64,000 bases of DNA from Ostreococcus lucimarinus. Taxonomy: Eukaryota. Below the pieces are notes generated by a model that was given only the letters and a program-made list of their open reading frames with translations, had not been told where the DNA came from and made no database searches. Made by a program: the position numbers and the translations under genes. Positions 2,881-64,000 of this stretch are shown here, in pieces. Position 1 is the first letter of the stretch, and each line of letters opens with the position of its first letter. The DNA is taken from assembly GCA_000092065.1 (NCBI GenBank), contig CP000587.1; one strand, given 5' to 3'.

Positions 2881-5228
2881 ATGTCGTCCGCCGCCGCCCT
2901 GAGCCCGGCCGCGCTCGCGCTCCGCGCCAAGCTCACCGCCAAGGTCCAAAACCGTCGCTCGCGCATGAGCGCCAAGGTCGTCACGCGCGCCGCCGTCGCC
3001 GCGCCGCCGGGCGTCTCCGCGGACACGGTGAACGACGCGATCAACACCGTGCGATTTTTGGCGATCGACGCGATCAACAAGTCCAACTCCGGTCACCCCG
3101 GCTTGCCGATGGGCTGCGCGCCGATGGGCTACGTGATTTTCCGCGAAGCGATGACGCACAACCCGAAGAACACGAAGTGGTTCAACCGCGATCGATTCGT
3201 GCTGTCCGCGGGACACGGGTGCATGCTGCAGTACTCTTTGATGCATTTGACCGGTTACCCGAGCGTTTCGGTGCGTTCGTCGCGACGCGCGCGCGCGGGC
3301 GACGCGATTCTCGAACGCGCGCGCCGATCGTGTGGATAAAGCCTCAAGTTGGGGTTTTGGATAAGAGCCCGCGCGGACGCGCGAAGGATGGACGCGAACG
3401 CGCGAGAGCGTCGCTCTGGCGGACGCGCGAGCGATGATGGAGATAAAACTCGATGACTGACGATGAATGCGCGATGCACGCTCGACGCGCGTAGATTGAA
3501 GACATCAAGCAGTTCCGTCAGTGGGACTCCAAGACCCCGGGTCACCCGGAGAACTTCATCACCGACGGCATCGAAGTCACCACGGGCCCGCTCGGTATGG
3601 GTATTTGCAACGCCGTCGGTCTCGCGATGGTCGAGAAGCACCTCGCCGGTCGATTCAACAAGCCGGATTGCGAAATCGTCGATCACTACACGTACTGCGT
3701 CATGGGCGACGGCTGCAACATGGAGGGCATGTCCGGCGAAGGCGCGTCCCTCGCCGGTCACTGGGGCCTCGGCAAGTTGATTGTCTTCTATGACGACAAC
3801 CACATCTCCATCGATGGTCACACCGACATCTCCTTCACGGAAGACGTCGTCGCGCGCTTCAACGCGTACGGCTGGCACACGCAACACGTCGAGAACGGTA
3901 ACACCGACGTCGACTCGATTCGCGCCGCCGTCAACGCCGCCAAGGCTGACCCGCGCCCGTCGCTCATCAAGGTGACCACCTTGATTGGCTACGGTTCCCC
4001 GAACAAGTCCAACACCCACGACGTGCACGGCGCGCCGCTCGGTAAGGATGAAACCGCCGCGACTCGCGAAAACTTGAAGTGGAAGTACGGCGAATTCGAA
4101 GTTCCGGAAGCCGTCAAGGCGTACATGGATTGCTCCGAAAAGGGCACCGCCGCCGAAGCCGAATGGAACGCCAAGTGGGCCACCTACAAGAGCAAGTACG
4201 CCGAAGATGCGGCCGAGCTCGAGTCCATCATGTCCGGCAAGTTGCCGTCTGGCTGGGAAAAGTCTCTCCCGACGTTCACGCCGGAGGACAAGGGTGTCGC
4301 CACGCGCATCCACTCCCAAACCATGCTCAACGCCCTCGGTGGCGCGATCCCGGGTTTCATGGGTGGTTCCGCCGATCTTGCGCCGTCCAACATGACGTTG
4401 ATGAAGCAATTCGGTGACTTCCAAAAGGACACCCCGGCCGAGCGCAATGTTCGCTTCGGCGTCCGCGAGCACGGTATGGGTGCCATCGCCAACGGCATGA
4501 AGCTCCACTCCCCGGGTATCATTCCGTACTGCGCGACCTTCTTCATCTTCACCGACTACATGCGTTGCGCCATGCGCATCGCCGCGCTCTCCCAAGCCGG
4601 TACCATCTTCGTCATGACGCACGATTCCATCGGCGTCGGCGAGGACGGCCCGACTCACCAGCCGATTGAGCACGTCGCGTCCTTCCGCGCCATGCCGGGT
4701 ATGGACATGGCTCGCCCGGCCGACGGCAACGAGACCGCCGCCATGTACAAGATGGCTGTCGAAAACTCGATGAACGGTGCCCCGACTACGTTGGCGCTCT
4801 CCCGCCAAGTCGTGCCGAACCTTGCGGGTACCTCCATGGAAGGCGCCGCCAAGGGTGCGTACGTCGTCCAAGGCGCCGCCGCTGGCGAAGCGTGCGACGT
4901 GATCCTCATCGGTACCGGTACCGAACTCGAACTCGCGTGCCAAGCTGGTGCCGAGCTCGAATCTAAGGGTAAGAAGGTTCGCGTTGTCTCCATGCCGTGC
5001 TGGGAAGCCTTCGAGCGCCAACCGGCCGCCTACCAAGAGTCCGTCTTGCCGGCTGCCATGCGCGCGAAGACCGTCTCCATCGAGGCGGGCACCACGTTCG
5101 GCTGGGCTAAGTACGCCGGCGCTTCCATCGGACATGACGATTTCGGCGCTTCGGCACCGGCCCCGATTCTGTACAAGCAGTTCGGAATCACTGCCGATGC
5201 CATGGCCGCGAAGGCGATGTCGTTGTAA
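2881..5228 (+). CDS. TKL: Transketolase, plastid-type; two exons (2881..3270 and 3495..5228)
   Basis: ORFs 2881..3339 and 3597..5228 join in frame once 3271..3494 is removed, giving ...LTGYPSVS|[19 protein letters not shown].... ThDP-enzyme strings: [47 protein letters not shown]. The first ~40 aa look like a transit peptide. Confidence 0.92.
3271..3494 (+). other. Spliceosomal intron (224 nt) in the transketolase gene
   Basis: Donor GTGCGT at 3271; ACTGACGA at 3456-3463; acceptor AG at 3493-3494. Removal restores a conserved transketolase segment in frame (phase 0). Confidence 0.85.
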
Positions 5229-7898: not shown

Positions 7899-10800
7899 AT
7901 GATGACGACGGCGACGCGTCGACCGGCGACGACGGCGCGGTGGACGGCGACGCGGGATTTGGTGAAGAAGAATTCTTTGCGTCGAACGCGCGGGCGCGCG
8001 TGCGCGGCGCGCGTGCGGGCGAGCGCGCCGGAACCGCCGACGGTGCGTCGAGACATCGTCGCGCGACGACGCGAAACCCTGTGGATGGCGAGGGTGTGAC
8101 CTAGGAGACGCGCGCGACGGAGGGCGAGGAGCGACGGCGAGGGCGCGGAGACTGACGATGCGAGCGCGATCGGACGATTGATGCGATTAGGATCGAGCGA
8201 GCCCGTTCGGGTTCGAGCGCGAGATGGACGCGGTGGAGAAACAAATCGCGGCGCTGCCGACGGCGGCGCGGTTGGGGGCGTACGGCGCGCTCGTGGCGCT
8301 CGGCGCCGGATTGGGGAACGCGGTGGGCTCCGCGATGCCGGCGAACGTCAGGGGAGGGGCGAAAGCGGCGCTGACGGCGGTCGTCGGTGGTGGCGCCGCG
8401 TATGGGGTGTCGGTGGCGGATAAGAAGCGGTTCACGGCGGCGCCGAAGAGCTTGTGGAACTCGCTGCAGGGACGGGATCCGTTGAGCGTGACGGCTGAGG
8501 AAGTCAACGCGATGGGGGCGAAGTTTGGGATCGCGAACATGGGTCAATCGTGCGCGACGGCGATGACGGAGCTTTACGACGTCTACTTGATGTCTCTCGT
8601 GCCGCAAGGGTTGGATCCGGTGCAAGGTTGGGAAGCCGCGGCTTTGGCGCAGTTTCGCCAAACGCTCGGCATAGACGACGCCTCGGCGGCGCAGGCGCAC
8701 TTGGAGGCTGGTCGTCGCTTGTTCAGAAAGCGCATCGAACTCGGATCGACGGATAAGGAGACGGACTTGGAATCGCGCAAGGAGTTCCAAAAGCTCGTCT
8801 TCATCTCTACGCAAACCTTTGGCGAAGAGCAAGCGCGATTTTTGCTCCCGTGGAAGCGCGTGTTCCGCGTCTCGGACGCCCAAGTCGACTTGGCCAACAG
8901 AGACAACGCGAGCCAGCTGTTGCGCACGAGCTTGTCCAAATCTAACGCCATCGCTAACGTTGACGCCGCGGCGATCGCGTCGGCGGCTGACTACAAGGCG
9001 TCGCTGAATTTGGACGACGACGCCGCCGGTGAAATCGCCCAAGACCTCGCCACGGCGCACGTCGCCGGCATCGTCAACGGCACCATTACGTTGAACAAGG
9101 AACGTGGCTCTGCGCGTGACGTCGGTACGATTTGCAAGAACGTTGAACAAGTTTTGGCTTACAACGTCAAGCTCGAAGGCGCGCAAGGTTCTTTCCCGGG
9201 TGTTGGTCCGGTGACGCTGTTCGGCGGCGAGTTTGACTCGAAGATGACGGAACTCAAGGACGTGTTCAGAACCTACCTCGAGGAAGGCATCAAGGGTTAC
9301 TCCTTCAGTGCCGCGCTCAACGACAACCTCGGCAAGCTCCGTCTCGTGTTTGGCATGGGCAACAAGGAGGCAGACGACATTATTCTCGCCTCCACCACCG
9401 CCTCGTACCGCCTGGCGCTTCGCGACGCCGTCAAGAGCGGCTCGTTGGACAACGCCGAGTCTCCAGCCAAGGTGCTCCAAGGTTTGTGCGAAGGCCTCCG
9501 ATTCCCTCCGGAAGTGGCTGCGGGCATTCACGAAGAGAACTATCGCACCAAGCTCGAGTCCATCATCTCATCGAATAAAAAGCTCGAAGACGCCGACGTC
9601 GAAGCCTTGGCTCGCGTTCGCAAGCTCTTGTGCGTGCCGAAGGGCGTCGTTGAGAAGCTTCACTTTGAAATCTGCGGCGAAATTTACCGCACCGCGGTTC
9701 GCTCGGCGCTTTCCGTGCCGACCGAGTCCTTCACTCCGGCGCTTCGCGACCGATGCAAGGCTGCCAAGGCAAACGTTCGTCTCGACGACGAAACCGCGCT
9801 CAAGATTCTCGGCGCCGAGGCTCGCAAGCAAATGAGTGGTTTCATCCGCACGTCCAAGTCCATTAGAAACAAGACGGACGCGCAGAAGGAGATTCGCAAG
9901 ATGATCTTCTACAACCAAGGCGTCGTGACGCCGCTCGTGCAGGACGTGACCAAGGCAAAGGCTGAGGCGGCGGCGGAGGAGCTCGCCTCGCTCTTGAAGG
10001 AGGCGCAAGAGGCGGCGGCGAAGGAGGAAGCGGAAGAGAAGGCGAAAGCCGCCGCGGAGGCTACCGCGGCGGAGCCTGAAGCCGCCGCTGAGCCCACGGT
10101 GGATGATAGCCTTCGAAGTGCGGCGGAGGGTCAAGGCTTCGCCAGTGACACCCCCAAGAAGGTTGAGGAAGTGAAGGCTGAGGCGGCGACGGAGACCGCG
10201 GAGGAGGAAGAGAAAGAGGAAGAAGTCGTCGTCAAGGAGGAAGAAGTCCCGCACCAGAAGGAAGTCACGCTCGCCGAAGACATGGATGTGGTCACTCGCC
10301 AAGCGATGTACAGAGAATACCTCATGTTCTGCATGACTGGTGATCAAGTGAACGCCCCGATGGGCGTGCGCATCAACATCGAGCGCGACCAAAGCGAATT
10401 CAAGCGCTTGTCCCAGCTCGGCGATATCCTCGGCCTTAACATGATGGAAGTCGGTCAAGTGCACAAGGATCTGGCCGACAAGGCGTTCCGGACGCAAGCT
10501 GAGCAAATGCTCGGCGACGGCCGCGGCCTCACCGCCGATCGCGCCGAGAAGCTCAAGGAAATTCAGACGCAGCTCAACTTGCCCGAGGACGAGGCGCAAA
10601 AGATCATCAAGGGCATCACCTCGCAACGCATGATGTCCAACGTTCAGCAGCAAATTGCTTCTGGTACGCTCGATGCGGCTGAGGTGAGAAAGATGATCGA
10701 AGCTGGCGTCGAAATCGAGCGCATGATTCCGGAAGACAAGCGCATGAACTTGTTCCGCAAAAACGCCGAGCGCCGTTTGGGCGACGGAAGCGGAAGCGCC

Positions 10801-17812: not shown

Positions 17813-17844
17813 GGTCGGTCGGTCGGTCGGTCGGTCGGTCGGTC
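17813..17844. repeat. (GGTC)8 microsatellite in the CbiA-like/uL18 divergent promoter
   Basis: Eight perfect GGTC units. They are read as TDRPTDRPTDRP in the spurious N-terminal extension of ORF 14521..18378. Confidence 0.9.
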
Positions 17845-17920
17845 CGTGTTTGTAAAACGGTCGGTCGCCGCGGCGCAAGCCCTAAGCCGGCGACGGCGCG
17901 CGACACACGGCGACGCGACG

Positions 17921-18836
17921 ATGAACGCGCTCACGCACGCGATGCTCACGTCGAGGGCGACGATTAGAGGGAACGGCTTAGCCACGTCGGTGACGACGAC
18001 GCCGAGGAGAGGTGCGCGCGCGAGACGCGAAGACCGAAGACCGAAGACGCGCGAGGAGACGCGAGGGAACGCGATGGGGGGGCGACGACGGGACGCGCGC
18101 GAAGCGCGCGCGATGGGAGTGGACGCGCGAGGGCGCGCGAATGGAGGGTAGAAATGCGCGGGCGTCGAGCGGGACGCGCGAACGCGCGCGACGGGGGTCG
18201 CGGCGCGGGAAGTCGGCGCGACGCGAATGGGGCGCGGAAACCCCGAGGGTTGGGGAAACCCTGGAGCGAGGGTCGGCGAGCGAGGACTGACGAATGATGC
18301 GCGATTCTCGCGAGCGCAGCCGCCGTGGTGACTTCGGCGAAGATGACGCCCAAGGAAGCGAAGCGTCAGCAGCGACACCGCAAGATTCGATCCAAGGTGC
18401 GTCGATGGATCGAGAGTCGCGAAGACGCGAGCGACGACGGACGCCCCCTCGCGAAGACGCGAGGCGAGACGAGCGCGAGAGACTGACGAGCGATGCGATC
18501 GTCCGTTTCCATCGATAGATTTCCGGATCGTCCGAACGCCCGCGCATTTCCGTGTACAGATCGAACCAGCACGTCTACGTCCAAGTCATCGATGACGAAA
18601 ACCAAAAAACCATCGCCGCGCTCGGGACGATGAGCGCGTCCGTCAAGGCCGTCATCGGGAGCGAGGAGTGGAAGGGCAAGACCGTGGAGTCTGCGGAGCA
18701 AGTCGGGAAGATGCTCGGTGCCGTGTGCGTCGAAAAGGGCATCACGCAGGCTGTGTTCGACCGCGGTGGATTCCTCTACCACGGCCGCGTCAAGGCCATC
18801 GCCGACGGCGCTCGCGCCGCCGGCGTCGCGATGTGA
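17921..18836 (+). CDS. RPL18: Organellar (bacterial-type) ribosomal protein uL18; three exons (17921..18011, 18320..18396, 18519..18836)
   Basis: Exons 2+3 give KMTPKEAKRQQRHRKIRSK|ISGSSERPRISVYRSNQHVYVQVIDD..., a cyanobacterial-type L18 N-terminus plus body. Exon 1 (MNALTHAMLTSRATIRGNGLATSVTTTPRR) is a presequence that joins in frame (phase 1) via splice signals. The exon 2/3 junction is strong; exon 1 is inferred. Confidence 0.7.
18012..18319 (+). other. Putative intron 1 of uL18 (308 nt)
   Basis: Donor GTGCGC at 18012; ACTGACGA at 18286-18293; AG at 18318-18319. The spliced frame runs straight into the ATG at 18343. Confidence 0.5.
18397..18518 (+). other. Intron 2 of uL18 (122 nt)
   Basis: Donor GTGCGT at 18397; ACTGACGA at 18482-18489; AG at 18517-18518. 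Removal reconstitutes the conserved RHRKIRSKISGSSERPRISVYRSN segment. Confidence 0.85.
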
Positions 18837-26792: not shown

Positions 26793-26884
26793 CGTCGGGA
26801 CGCCTTCGGGACGACAAACGTCGAGGACGAGGACGCGCTCGCGTCAGTGCGCGACGACTCGCGATTTTCGTCGAGCGGGCTTCG

Positions 26885-27553: not shown

Positions 27554-30266
27554 TTACTTCGCTTCTTTTTCCTTTCTACTCGCGGCAAGCTCCGTTTGAA
27601 TGGCCATGGGGACGGGCTCGTAGCGCGCAAGCTTCATGGAGTAGTTGGCGCGACCCTTGGTCATGCCGCGCAACTTGGAGACGTAGTTGAACATTTCCGC
27701 GAGCGGCACGAACGCCTTGACCGTCTTCATGCCACCCGGCTTGTCGCCGAGCTCGTTGACGGCACCACGACGAGAGTTCAAGTCACCGATAACGTCACCC
27801 ATGGATTCTTCCGGGGTGATGACATCAACCTCCATGACGGGCTCCAAAAGCTTCGGGGCGCACTTGGAGATGCCTTCTCTGAACGCGCCCTTGGCGGCGA
27901 TTTCGAAAGCCATGACGGAGGAATCGACGTCGTGGTAAGAACCATCGAACAAGGTGGCGCGCAAGTCCACGACAGGGAAACCGGCGATGATACCAGAGCC
28001 CATCATTTGTTCCAAACCGCTCGCGACGCCCGGAATGTATTCCTTCGGCACGGTGCCACCCTTGATGTCGGTGGTGAACTCGAAACCGGAACCCGGTTCG
28101 AGCGGTTCAAACTTGATTTTAACCTCGGCGTATTGACCGGAACCACCAGACTGCTTCTTGTGCGTGTACTTGACTTCACCCGGCTTGGAGATAGATTCAC
28201 GGTAGTTGACTTGCGGCGCGCCGACGTTGGCTTCAACCTTGAATTCGCGCTTGAGGCGATCGACGATGATGTCGAGGTGAAGCTCACCCATACCTTCGAT
28301 GACGGTTTGGTTGGTTTCTTCGTCACGCGTGAAGTGGAAAGACGGATCTTCCTGCGCGAGCTTGATCAAACCGGTGGACATCTTTTCGACGTCAGCCTTG
28401 GTCTTCGGCTCGATGGCAACCTTGATAACGGGATCGGGGAACTCCATGCGTTCGAGGATAATTTGCTTTCCTTGGTCGCACAACGTGTCACCGGTGGTGG
28501 TGTCCTTGAGACCAGCGATGGCGACGATGTCACCAGTGCGCGCCACTTTGACGTCCTCACGCTCGTTCGCGTGCATCTCGAGGAGGCGACCGATGCGTTC
28601 CTTCTTACCCTTGACGGAGTTGTACGCGTAAGAGCCGGATTCGATGATGCCAGAGTACACGCGGGTGAAGGTGAGCGAACCGACGAACGGATCAGTCATG
28701 ACCTTGAACGCCAACGCAGAGAGCGCTTCATCGTCATCCGCCTTGCGGGTGAGCTTCTTTTCGGCGTCATCGACGTCGGTACCTTGGACATCCGGGACAT
28801 CCGTCGGCGCCGGCAAGTACGCGAGGACGGCGTCGAGCATCGGTTGGACACCCTTGTTCTTGAACGCGGAGCCGCACAACACCGGGACGAAGGAGAGAGA
28901 GCACGTGCCCTTACGGATGCACTTGACAATCTCTTCCTCGGTCGGTTCTTCACCTTCGAGGTACTTTTCCATGACGTCGTCGTCTTGCTCGACGGCCATT
29001 TCAATCATGTTGGCGCGCATCTCTTCAGCCTTCTCCTTGAGGTCGTCCGGAATTTCGACAACGTCCCAAGACGCGCCGAGCTCTTCACCCTTCCAGACGA
29101 GCGCCTTCATGGTGATGAGATCGACGACGCCGGCGAAGTCTTCTTCGGCGCCGATCGGGATTTGGAGCGGGCACGGACGCGCGCCGAGGTTCTTGACAAT
29201 CATGTCGATGGTGCGGAAGTAGTTGGCACCCATGCGATCCATCTTGTTCACGAAGCACAAACGTGGAACGTGGTACTTGTCGGCTTGGCGCCAGACGGTT
29301 TCGGATTGCGGTTCGACACCGGCGACGGAGTCGAAGAGGCAAATGGCGCCGTCGAGCACGCGAAGCGCGCGTTCAACTTCCAACGTGAAATCGACGTGAC
29401 CAGGGGTATCGATGATGTTGATACGGTGATCGTTCCACGCGCACGTGGTCGCGGCGGACGTAATCGTGATACCGCGCTCTTGTTCTTGTTCCATCCAGTC
29501 CATCGTCGCCGCGCCTTCGTGCACTTCGCCGATTTTGTGCGAGCGACCGGTGTAGTACAACACGCGTTCCGTCGTCGTCGTCTTACCCGCATCGATGTGG
29601 GCCATGATACCGATGTTGCGGTACTTGTTCAACGGAATCTTCCGTGCTTCGGCTTCTTCGCCCTTGGCCGCGCGAACGACGTGGGTGCGTCGTTGCTGCT
29701 TTTGGTTCTGCGTTCGGGACGAGCGTAATCAATCGCGCGCGTCGTCAGTCGTCTCGTCCCTCGCGCGCCGTCCTCGCGCGCCGTCCTCGCGCGCGTAAAT
29801 TTCCCTCAACCATTTCCCCGCATCTCCGTCCCTCGCGCGCCGTCCTCGCGCGCCGCATCGCGCGACGCCTCCCCCGACGCGCGAAGGGATAAGGCGGCCG
29901 CCGCCAGGGTGACGTCGAACGTCGCGCCCGTCCCCTCGCGCATCGCGCGCGCCCGCCCCCCTCCGCCGCCGCGCATCGCGCGCTCAAAATTATCCCGCCC
30001 CGTTTCGCCGCGCGCGCGCGCCGCCGCGCGTTCGCCGCGCCCGCGAAGCCCCCGCGCGCGCGCCGTCGAGGGTGACGTCGCATTCCCATCGTCGTCGTCG
30101 TCGCGCGTCGCGCGCGTCGTCGTCGCGTCGCGCGCGCGCGCGTCGCGCGTCGCGCGTCCGAAAATCGCCGCGCGCAAAACTCGCGCACCTCGGTGGATCG
30201 ACGCACCGGCGAGGCGGCGTACGCGCATCGCGCGGTGGTCACGGAAGACGCCACGGAAGACATCAT
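27554..30266 (-). CDS. FUSA: Chloroplast-type elongation factor G; two exons (30266..30189 or ..30207, and 29707..27554)
   Basis: Near-identical to plastid/cyanobacterial EF-G strings: [74 protein letters not shown]. The track start is TTG; the frame stays open upstream (..[21 protein letters not shown]) with no ATG. An inferred upstream exon ([20 protein letters not shown]...) supplies the start. Confidence 0.88.
29708..30188 (-). other. Putative EF-G intron (481 nt; 499 nt if the 30206 donor is used)
   Basis: Minus-strand donors GTGCGT (30206-30201) and GTGCGC (30188-30183) are both phase 0. ACTGACGA at 29749-29742; acceptor CAG ends at 29708. Exon 2 starts in frame at 29707. Confidence 0.55.
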
Positions 30267-63210: not shown

Positions 63211-63457
63211 GAATGGCATGTTAGCCCATGGATTCGCGTGACGCCGGCGCCGCAGTCGTCGTCCCTGCGTCTAGGATTTTTAGGCGTTTTCTCGTTTGCG
63301 CGATGTGACATACGCGAGCGCGCGCGCGTGAAGATACAACTGTGCGAACCACACGGGGATCGCAAACGAACGATCGCGGGCTAGAAATAGAAGAAATAGG
63401 AATGCAAAACGATTCACCCACGTCGCCGTCGCGCCCCTCGAACGCGCCTCCCTGAAA

Positions 63458-63493
63458 CTAGGGTTAGAAACTCGGGCTGAAAACTAGGGTTAG
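63458..63493 (+). repeat. Subtelomeric degenerate telomere-like motifs (two copies of ACTAGGGTTAG about 26 nt apart)
   Basis: CTAGGGTTAG at 63458-63467 and at 63484-63493. Confidence 0.7.
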
Positions 63494-63769
63494 CAGTGTC
63501 TCTGGAACATGACGCTTTTGCCGCCCTGAAAGTTGCGCGAGTAAAGGGGTCACCAAAACCACTACACTGGCGGTCGACGACGCTGGAATTTTGCATACAC
63601 GCATGAAACACGCATTTGCATCTGTGTACGCGCGCGTTTTGCGGCACTCTGGGTGCCGGCGGCGACCCGGACCTTTACGTCGTCGCGGGCGTAGGCCGCG
63701 GTTTGGGTTTTTTGGAAATGTGTGATACTGGTTTTGGGTGGAGGACTACGTCAGGTGGGGCGGGGTGAA

Positions 63770-63804
63770 CTAGGGTTTGGAGGGCTAGGGTTCGATTTGT
63801 AGGG
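63770..63804 (+). repeat. Degenerate telomere-proximal variant units (CTAGGGTTTGG, CTAGGGTT, TTTGTAGGG)
   Basis: A transition zone of imperfect units immediately before the perfect array. Confidence 0.75.
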
Positions 63805-64000
63805 TTTAGGGTTTAGGGTTTAGGGTTTAGGGTTTAGGGTTTAGGGTTTAGGGTTTAGGGTTTAGGGTTTAGGGTTTAGGGTTTAGGGTTTAGGGTTTAG
63901 GGTTTAGGGTTTAGGGTTTAGGGTTTAGGGTTTAGGGTTTAGGGTTTAGGGTTTAGGGTTTAGGGTTTAGGGTTTAGGGTTTAGGGTTTAGGGTTTAGGG
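63805..64000 (+). repeat. Telomere: (TTTAGGG)28, G-rich strand running 5'->3' to the window end
   Basis: 196 nt, equal to 28 perfect heptamers of the plant/green-algal type, reaching the last base of the window. Confidence 0.97.

Follow-up and report, generated by a model that had tools for sequence, protein, structure and literature searches.

Introduction

The terminal (telomeric) 64 kb of a chromosome of the green alga Ostreococcus lucimarinus (assembly GCA_000092065.1, contig CP000587.1; 64,000 nucleotides (nt), guanine plus cytosine (GC) content 0.62), referred to here as the window, carries genes for transketolase, Tic110, plastid uL18 and plastid EF-G that are interrupted by five introns, two of them in uL18. 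A sequence-only reading had proposed that these introns obey a single rigid splice code, consisting of a GTGCG[T/C] donor and the box ACTGACGA placed 29–37 nt before the AG, and had asked whether such uniformity reflects a shared, introner-like origin or strong selection on the signals.

The code itself is not new, having been published for O. lucimarinus in 2008, and it is a textbook property of the genome. Among O. lucimarinus introns outside chromosome 2 that are confirmed by expressed sequence tags (ESTs), ACTGAC is found in 87.2% and GACTGACG in 66.5%, leaving ~13% of introns with no ACTGAC; the donor consensus is GTGCGTG, which was called atypical, CGCAG is preferred at the acceptor, and 20–35 nt separate the branch point from the AG (Irimia and Roy, 2008; PLoS Genet 4:e1000148, PMC2483917). 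The same authors liken this code to that of intron-poor yeasts, and report that chromosome-2 introns, spliced in the same cells, carry quite different, weak signals. In the related Micromonas, canonical introns have AG|GTGCGT and NCTGAC (Verhelst et al., 2013; PMC3879977), and introner elements have GYRaGu, GacUGAC and CAG (Simmons et al., 2015; PMC4540971).

We have compared the five introns with their counterparts in nine syntenic contigs (L001–L009), which come from other lineages of Ostreococcus and from Mamiellophyceae that are more distantly related, and in 67 metagenome uL18 loci (L010–L076), of which those assigned to Micromonas or Bathycoccus are so assigned provisionally, from GC content and identity.

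The five introns

The window contains exactly five copies of ACTGACGA, at 3456, 8151, 18286 and 18482 on the plus strand and at 29749–29742 on the minus strand, and each copy has GTGCGT or GTGCGC after an open reading frame (ORF) upstream and an AG where the frame resumes downstream. The evidence of homology, reading frame and orthologs makes each of the five segments a genuine intron, and the positions first given for them stand. They are 122–481 nt long, none having a length divisible by three (0/5), with a GC content of 0.65–0.75 and 38–52% pyrimidines.

The transketolase intron (3271..3494, plus strand, 224 nt) begins with the donor tcg|GTGCGT at 3271–3276 and ends with the acceptor GCGTAG at 3494, its branch box GACTGACGA lying at 3455–3463 with the branch A at 3460. 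The Pfam domain Transketolase_N is split over this intron (profile positions 3–86 and 82–334), the spliced product continues ...GYPSVS|, and L001, L002 and L005 share the intron position.

In Tic110 the intron (8043..8190, plus strand, 148 nt, phase 0) has the donor acg|GTGCGT at 8043 and the acceptor GATTAG ending at 8190, with the same box at 8150–8158 and the branch A at 8155. It follows an exon 1 (7899–8042) that encodes a 48-amino acid presequence; L001, L002, L004 and L006 also have this exon in frame, with a conserved sequence (..ARVRAS..PEPPT|DR.SPFGFE). Exon 2 in these four contigs has no ATG corresponding to the one in O. lucimarinus exon 2. In the Tic110 alignment (A1) donor, branch box and acceptor are all kept.

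Plastid uL18 intron 1 (18012..18319, plus strand, 308 nt, phase 1), preceded by exon 1 (17921–18011), runs from gag|GTGCGC at 18012 to GCGCAG ending at 18319, with the box at 18285–18293 and the branch A at 18290. It is the least supported of the five; when it is removed an ATG-started ORF remains in frame, and an orthologous, ACTGAC-bearing intron 1 is present in every Ostreococcus-type locus examined. Intron 2 (18397..18518, plus strand, 122 nt, phase 0) has the donor aag|GTGCGT at 18397, the acceptor CGATAG ending at 18518, the box at 18481–18489 and the branch A at 18486. Splicing across it gives ...RHRKIRSK|ISGSSERPRISVYRSNQH, in agreement with Ribosomal_L18p orthologs, and in orthologs that lack the intron (L001–3, L019–23, L027 and the loci placed provisionally in Micromonas and Bathycoccus) the reading frame runs uninterrupted across this junction.

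The plastid EF-G intron is on the minus strand (29708..30188, 481 nt) and ends with the acceptor ACGCAG at 29708, with the box at 29750–29742 and the branch A at 29745. Its donor is either gag|GTGCGC at 30188–30183 or ccg|GTGCGT at 30206–30201, the latter giving an intron of 499 nt; the two sites are 18 nt apart and both are in frame with an exon 1 whose start codon is the ATG at 30266. Such an upstream exon is required, since no ATG precedes the conserved G-domain motif in exon 2. Orthologous EF-G introns are present in the O. tauri-like contig L007 and in the O. mediterraneus-like contigs L008 and L009, and the O. mediterraneus MMETSP transcript-derived EF-G P0063 fits the spliced L009 junction ...HRRVNAT|ATKR..., with one residue differing in a by-eye translation.

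Pfam scans of 40 ORFs, representing ~30 distinct genes, gave no further split or truncated domain. A hidden intron in the GT2 gene was considered, as the domain precedes the first listed ATG, and was rejected on finding an in-frame ATG further upstream. The intron load is therefore ~5 introns in ~41 genes, which is an estimate for coding regions to which introns in untranslated regions (UTRs) could add. The entire window was without a match in an Rfam scan, which thus gave no sign of a catalogued small nucleolar or other RNA in the introns and showed no small nuclear RNA (snRNA) gene in the window.

Placement and spacing of the splice signals

Branch A and acceptor G lie 34, 35, 29, 32 and 37 nt apart in transketolase, Tic110, uL18 introns 1 and 2 and EF-G, respectively, reproducing the distances originally given. 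The raw count of ACTGACGA in the window is not enriched (5 against 2.69 expected, with 11/100 shuffles reaching at least 5), and its core ACTGAC is scarce, at 8 copies against 20.8 +/- 4.4 expected. Five of these eight copies are on the sense strand of the introns, a total of 1,283 nt in which 0.08 would be expected (Poisson P ~3e-8). Thus, when the motif is counted inside and outside introns, as had been suggested, it is the placement and not the number of the 8-mer that stands out, since the count is near chance and the intronic location highly non-random.

The proposal that the code would permit ab initio intron finding also bears out within the window. A three-part rule, requiring GTGCGY no more than 600 nt upstream, ACTGAC, and an AG 15–45 nt after the branch A, returns exactly the five introns from both strands, with zero false positives. 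One further ACTGAC, at 26848 on the minus strand, was considered as marking a 5'-UTR intron of an ankyrin gene and was rejected; we treat it as chance because it has no upstream GTGCGY donor and adjoins the start of a gene on the opposite strand.

Other parts of the code as first described fare less evenly. The 8-mer is indeed present in 5/5 introns, but its apparent invariance is an artefact of the small sample, five introns, given the published frequencies and the variation among orthologs, in which the box reads ACTGACC, ACTGACT or ACTGACG. The flank 'gAg', described as agreeing between introns, is true of two of the five only; G at -1 alone is constant, which extends the box to GACTGACGA in 5/5. 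GCGAT does follow the box in 5/5 introns, by 0–7 nt, and this has P ~6e-5 when calculated from the introns' own GCGAT rate; however, the value rises to ~0.04 when any common 5-mer is allowed for in these low-complexity introns, and GCGAT is missing both from L011, a population variant in which uL18 exon 3 is identical, and from other species. We have therefore rejected it as a general third signal. An extension more consistent than GCGAT is ACTGACGAT(G).

The coding sequence (CDS) of the window, ~42 kb, has no ACTGAC on its sense strand, against 2.7 expected under codon shuffling (P ~0.05). The shorter CTGAC is approximately twofold depleted in the CDS on both strands (11 against 21.9 and 12 against 22.3 in codon-shuffled controls), and because both strands are affected this depletion may reflect base composition in place of any avoidance of cryptic branch points.

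Signals and interiors of orthologous introns

ACTGAC is found 22–46 nt from the AG in 19 of 20 orthologous introns, drawn from at least six lineages. The donors of the 20 are GTGCGT in nine, GTGCGC in four, GTACG[T/A/C] in six and GTAAGT in one, so that 19 are of the GT[GA]CG type. Among six distinct Ostreococcus uL18 intron 2 sequences ACTGAC is present in all (6/6), with the donor GTGCGT in three and GTGCGA, GTGAGC and GTGGGT in one each. Alignments of the Tic110 intron and of uL18 intron 1 over four lineages show that the donor, the box, the acceptor and one short motif are kept, and little else. Between the five O. lucimarinus introns themselves the interiors are indistinguishable from dinucleotide shuffles, the 10 pairwise comparisons giving z = -0.6 to 2.8.

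In the provisional Micromonas loci a pyrimidine tract follows the box, which is placed ~45 nt before the AG, and in the provisional Bathycoccus uL18 loci the box is absent. By contrast with both, a spacing of 29–37 nt with no pyrimidine tract is thus a trait at the level of the genus.

Conserved motifs within the introns

The short motif kept in the Tic110 intron (alignment A1) is a telomere-repeat-like telo-box, GAAACCCTG (core AAACCCT), at 8074–8080. In uL18 intron 1 (alignment A2) two tandem telo-box-like copies, GGAAACCC[C/T] ... GAAACCCTG, are found at 18234–18262. These motifs are invariant over four Ostreococcus lineages while the intron sequence around them is mostly unalignable, and searches of the literature turned up no mention of telo-boxes in Ostreococcus introns. 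The EF-G intron contains, on the minus strand, two copies of GACGTCAC, at 30079–30072 and 29916–29909, and TTATCC/GGATAA at ~29878–29872; both elements recur in the otherwise diverged introns of L007, L008 and L009. GACGTCAC is also seen in several 5' intergenic regions of the window. The transketolase intron has a patch, GTGG...GGATAAGA(TAAG)CCC, at 3330–3375, which is kept in L001 (~4790–4835) and L002 (~4815–4850) and includes GATAAG, an I-box-like motif.

One tentative idea, to which we would give rather less than even odds, is that 5'-proximal introns are retained because they also carry putative promoter-type cis-elements, for which the conserved motifs above are candidates; literature searches gave no account of this for Ostreococcus. 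If this is true, such introns would be regulatory modules as well as splicing substrates, comparable to intron-mediated enhancement or telo-box/TRB-type control in land plants.

Presence and absence of uL18 intron 2

Only uL18 intron 2 among the five shows lineage-specific presence at a position that is empty in relatives. It is present in O. lucimarinus and in at least four other Ostreococcus lineages (for example L004, 10840–10964), is cleanly absent (AAG|GTG; L001, 20302/20303) from an Ostreococcus clade comprising L001–3, L019–23 and L027, and is likewise lacking in every locus given a provisional Micromonas or Bathycoccus assignment. In a neighbour-joining tree of a single gene, Tic110, the clade lacking the intron is sister to O. 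lucimarinus. This placement suggests that intron 2 was gained in the Ostreococcus stem, at a proto-splice site, and was later precisely lost.

Why the signals are alike

We propose, with a probability of about 0.93, that these are five ordinary U2-type (major-spliceosome) introns of the canonical class, which occupies most of the O. lucimarinus genome apart from the low-GC part of chromosome 2, and that their signals are uniform because of purifying selection and not because the introns are copies of one another. This reading follows from the finding that the signals are kept in orthologs while the interiors diverge, and that the interiors of the five are mutually dissimilar, which points to selection on the signals in preference to common descent. 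From general knowledge of the spliceosome, the G|GUGCGY donor would be recognised by U1 and then by U6, and (G)ACUGAC would pair with the branch-binding sequence of U2 snRNA with its second A bulged. The spliceosome would then take an AG 22–37 nt downstream, there being no real polypyrimidine tract, and in so intron-poor a genome purifying selection would be expected to keep every intron near the optimal signal, as it does TACTAAC in hemiascomycete yeasts.

A number of observations weigh against this reading, or against the firmness with which it can be applied. The junctions are set by homology, by reading frame and by comparison with orthologs, and an exact database look-up of the spliced models of the five proteins gave no identical entry (the same look-up for one ORF of the window and for the NCBI Tic110 model also returned nothing). 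The EF-G donor is ambiguous between its two sites; the ends of exon 1 in orthologs favour the downstream one, GTGCGC at 30188, and a switch of donor would lengthen or shorten the transit peptide by six residues (VRRSTE). The Tic110 intron of L006 lacks a CTRAY box where one is expected, showing that the splice code is not absolute. The donor, moreover, prefers G at +3 and C at +4, and standard U1 mismatches at +4.

This last feature is where an explanation by co-evolved machinery takes hold, in which U2 or U6 snRNA, or SF1/BBP, would have been altered in Mamiellophyceae so as to match GUGCGY and GACUGACG, setting a new optimum in place of a tightened old one. Reasoning from canonical snRNAs, neither +3G/+4C nor the G 5' of ACUGAC is typical or would have a standard U1 or U2 pairing, and Irimia and Roy raised the possibility themselves (PMC2483917). 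However, the U1 pairing region was standard in all five Mamiellales genomes searched (Roy and Bowser, 2022; bioRxiv 10.1101/2022.06.08.495308), so that the donor is not explained by a compensating U1 change; the same cells splice the weak-signal introns of chromosome 2 (PMC2483917), and orthologs swap freely between GTGCGT and GTACGT or GTAAGT. We therefore regard a changed machinery as unlikely. A circular result is scarcely credible, although introns that are found by means of a motif will appear uniform while non-conforming ones are overlooked, and there are grounds for such a concern: three of the five introns are in poorly conserved presequences with boundaries that homology alone could not fix, UTR introns are possible, and the published set includes the ~13% that have no ACTGAC (PMC2483917). 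Against it, the boundaries of the transketolase, uL18 intron 2 and EF-G introns were set independently of the motif and that of Tic110 by its conserved exon 1, and neither the Pfam scans nor the GT2 suspect, with its upstream ATG, yielded another split gene.

The question posed by the sequence-only reading, was whether the introns are introner-like, and here too the data speak for selection. Descent of all five from one mobile family, after the manner of Micromonas IE-A and IE-C/ABC-IE or the introner-like elements (ILEs) of fungi, would account for the fact that IE-C/ABC-IE of Micromonas commoda have the same GACTGACG box (PMC3879977), and uL18 intron 2, with its patchy distribution, resembles a gain confined to certain lineages, made at an AAG|GT proto-splice site. 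Such descent is nevertheless very improbable. The interiors, of which only five could be compared, show no similarity beyond dinucleotide chance, and the intron lengths span 122–481 nt; the four remaining positions are common to Ostreococcus lineages with diverged interiors, and those of transketolase, uL18 intron 1 and probably Tic110 are occupied even in the distant, Micromonas-like L005. The introner papers report no such family in Ostreococcus (PMC4540971, PMC3879977), and the CGCG-rich composition that the introns have in common is also that of 5' intergenic DNA.

As a discovery these observations carry little weight, the code having been described in 2008 and being in use for gene modelling in Mamiellophyceae. 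The comparative data do provide a clean illustration of uniformity that arises from selection on signals and not from shared descent, and the conserved telo-boxes and the pattern of uL18 intron 2 offer modest leads on how introns are retained and gained in intron-poor genomes.

The Tic110 gene model and other features of the window

The Tic110 ORF of the window is identical to the NCBI O. lucimarinus Tic110 in all aligned segments. The NCBI model (901 amino acids) starts at an internal Met and so misses exon 1 and the intron, and it drops 54 amino acids of acidic, low-complexity coding sequence (~10100–10260) as an intron. The uninterrupted ORF is backed by 100%-identical metagenome gene calls, and a check against the three-part code thus exposes a faulty public gene model.

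That the window is a chromosome end is indicated by (TTTAGGG)n at 63801–64000, with degenerate copies from ~63771 and the G-rich strand running 5' to 3' toward the window end. Two subtelomeric near-repeats with CTAACCCTAG lie at ~63455–63495. The intergenic DNA is asymmetric: 5' or divergent spacers have a GC content of 0.63–0.75 and are CGCG-rich like the introns, and 3' or convergent spacers are AT-rich (GC 0.21–0.43) and very short (19–137 nt). A (GGTC)n microsatellite of ~7 units is found at ~17815–17850, just before the uL18 start, in a divergent promoter region shared with a CobQ-like gene.

Comparison with known splicing systems

As U2-type canonical introns of Mamiellophyceae, the five have frame-restoring GT...AG ends, the donor in 5/5 and the box in 5/5 at 29–37 nt. 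They do not resemble the BOC1 class, which is found in a low-GC region and comprises AT-rich introns of ~40–65 nt with no discernible box, being themselves 122–481 nt long with a GC content of 0.65–0.75 and a strong box. Nor are they of the U12 type, which has the donor [AG]TATCCTT and the branch TCCTTAAC 10–15 nt from the 3' end, in place of GTGCGY and ACTGAC at 29–37 nt.

The closest match is with the canonical introns of O. lucimarinus itself, to which the five belong by donor, box, spacing and an occasional CGCAG acceptor (Irimia and Roy, 2008). The 37 nt of EF-G is just beyond the published peak of 20–35 nt, and the occurrence of ACTGACGA in 5/5 is the small-sample extreme of GACTGACG at 66.5%; otherwise nothing of substance separates them. 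Canonical introns of Micromonas (Verhelst et al., 2013; van Baren et al., 2016) are alike in AG|GTGCGT, NCTGAC, a fixed acceptor distance and an intron-poor, GC-rich genome, but have the box 43–52 nt from the acceptor and a pyrimidine-rich tract (as also seen in L005 and in Micromonas-like uL18), whereas the O. lucimarinus introns have 29–37 nt and 38–52% pyrimidine. The introner elements of Micromonas (IE-A/D-IE and IE-C/ABC-IE) are likewise spliceosomal, with GYGCGT-type donors and a GACTGAC(G) box, but exist as hundreds to thousands of near-identical full-length copies, whereas the introns of the window share signals only and are of very different lengths.

The yeast-like tightness that was remarked on at the outset holds for donor and branch within the window and agrees with the EST-based data already published (PMC2483917). 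Hemiascomycete yeasts (GTATGT...TACTAAC) likewise combine an intron-poor genome with a near-invariant donor and branch, but the consensus differs, GTATGT and TACTAAC in yeast against GTGCGT and ACTGAC here, which makes O. lucimarinus an independent, convergent case in a green alga.

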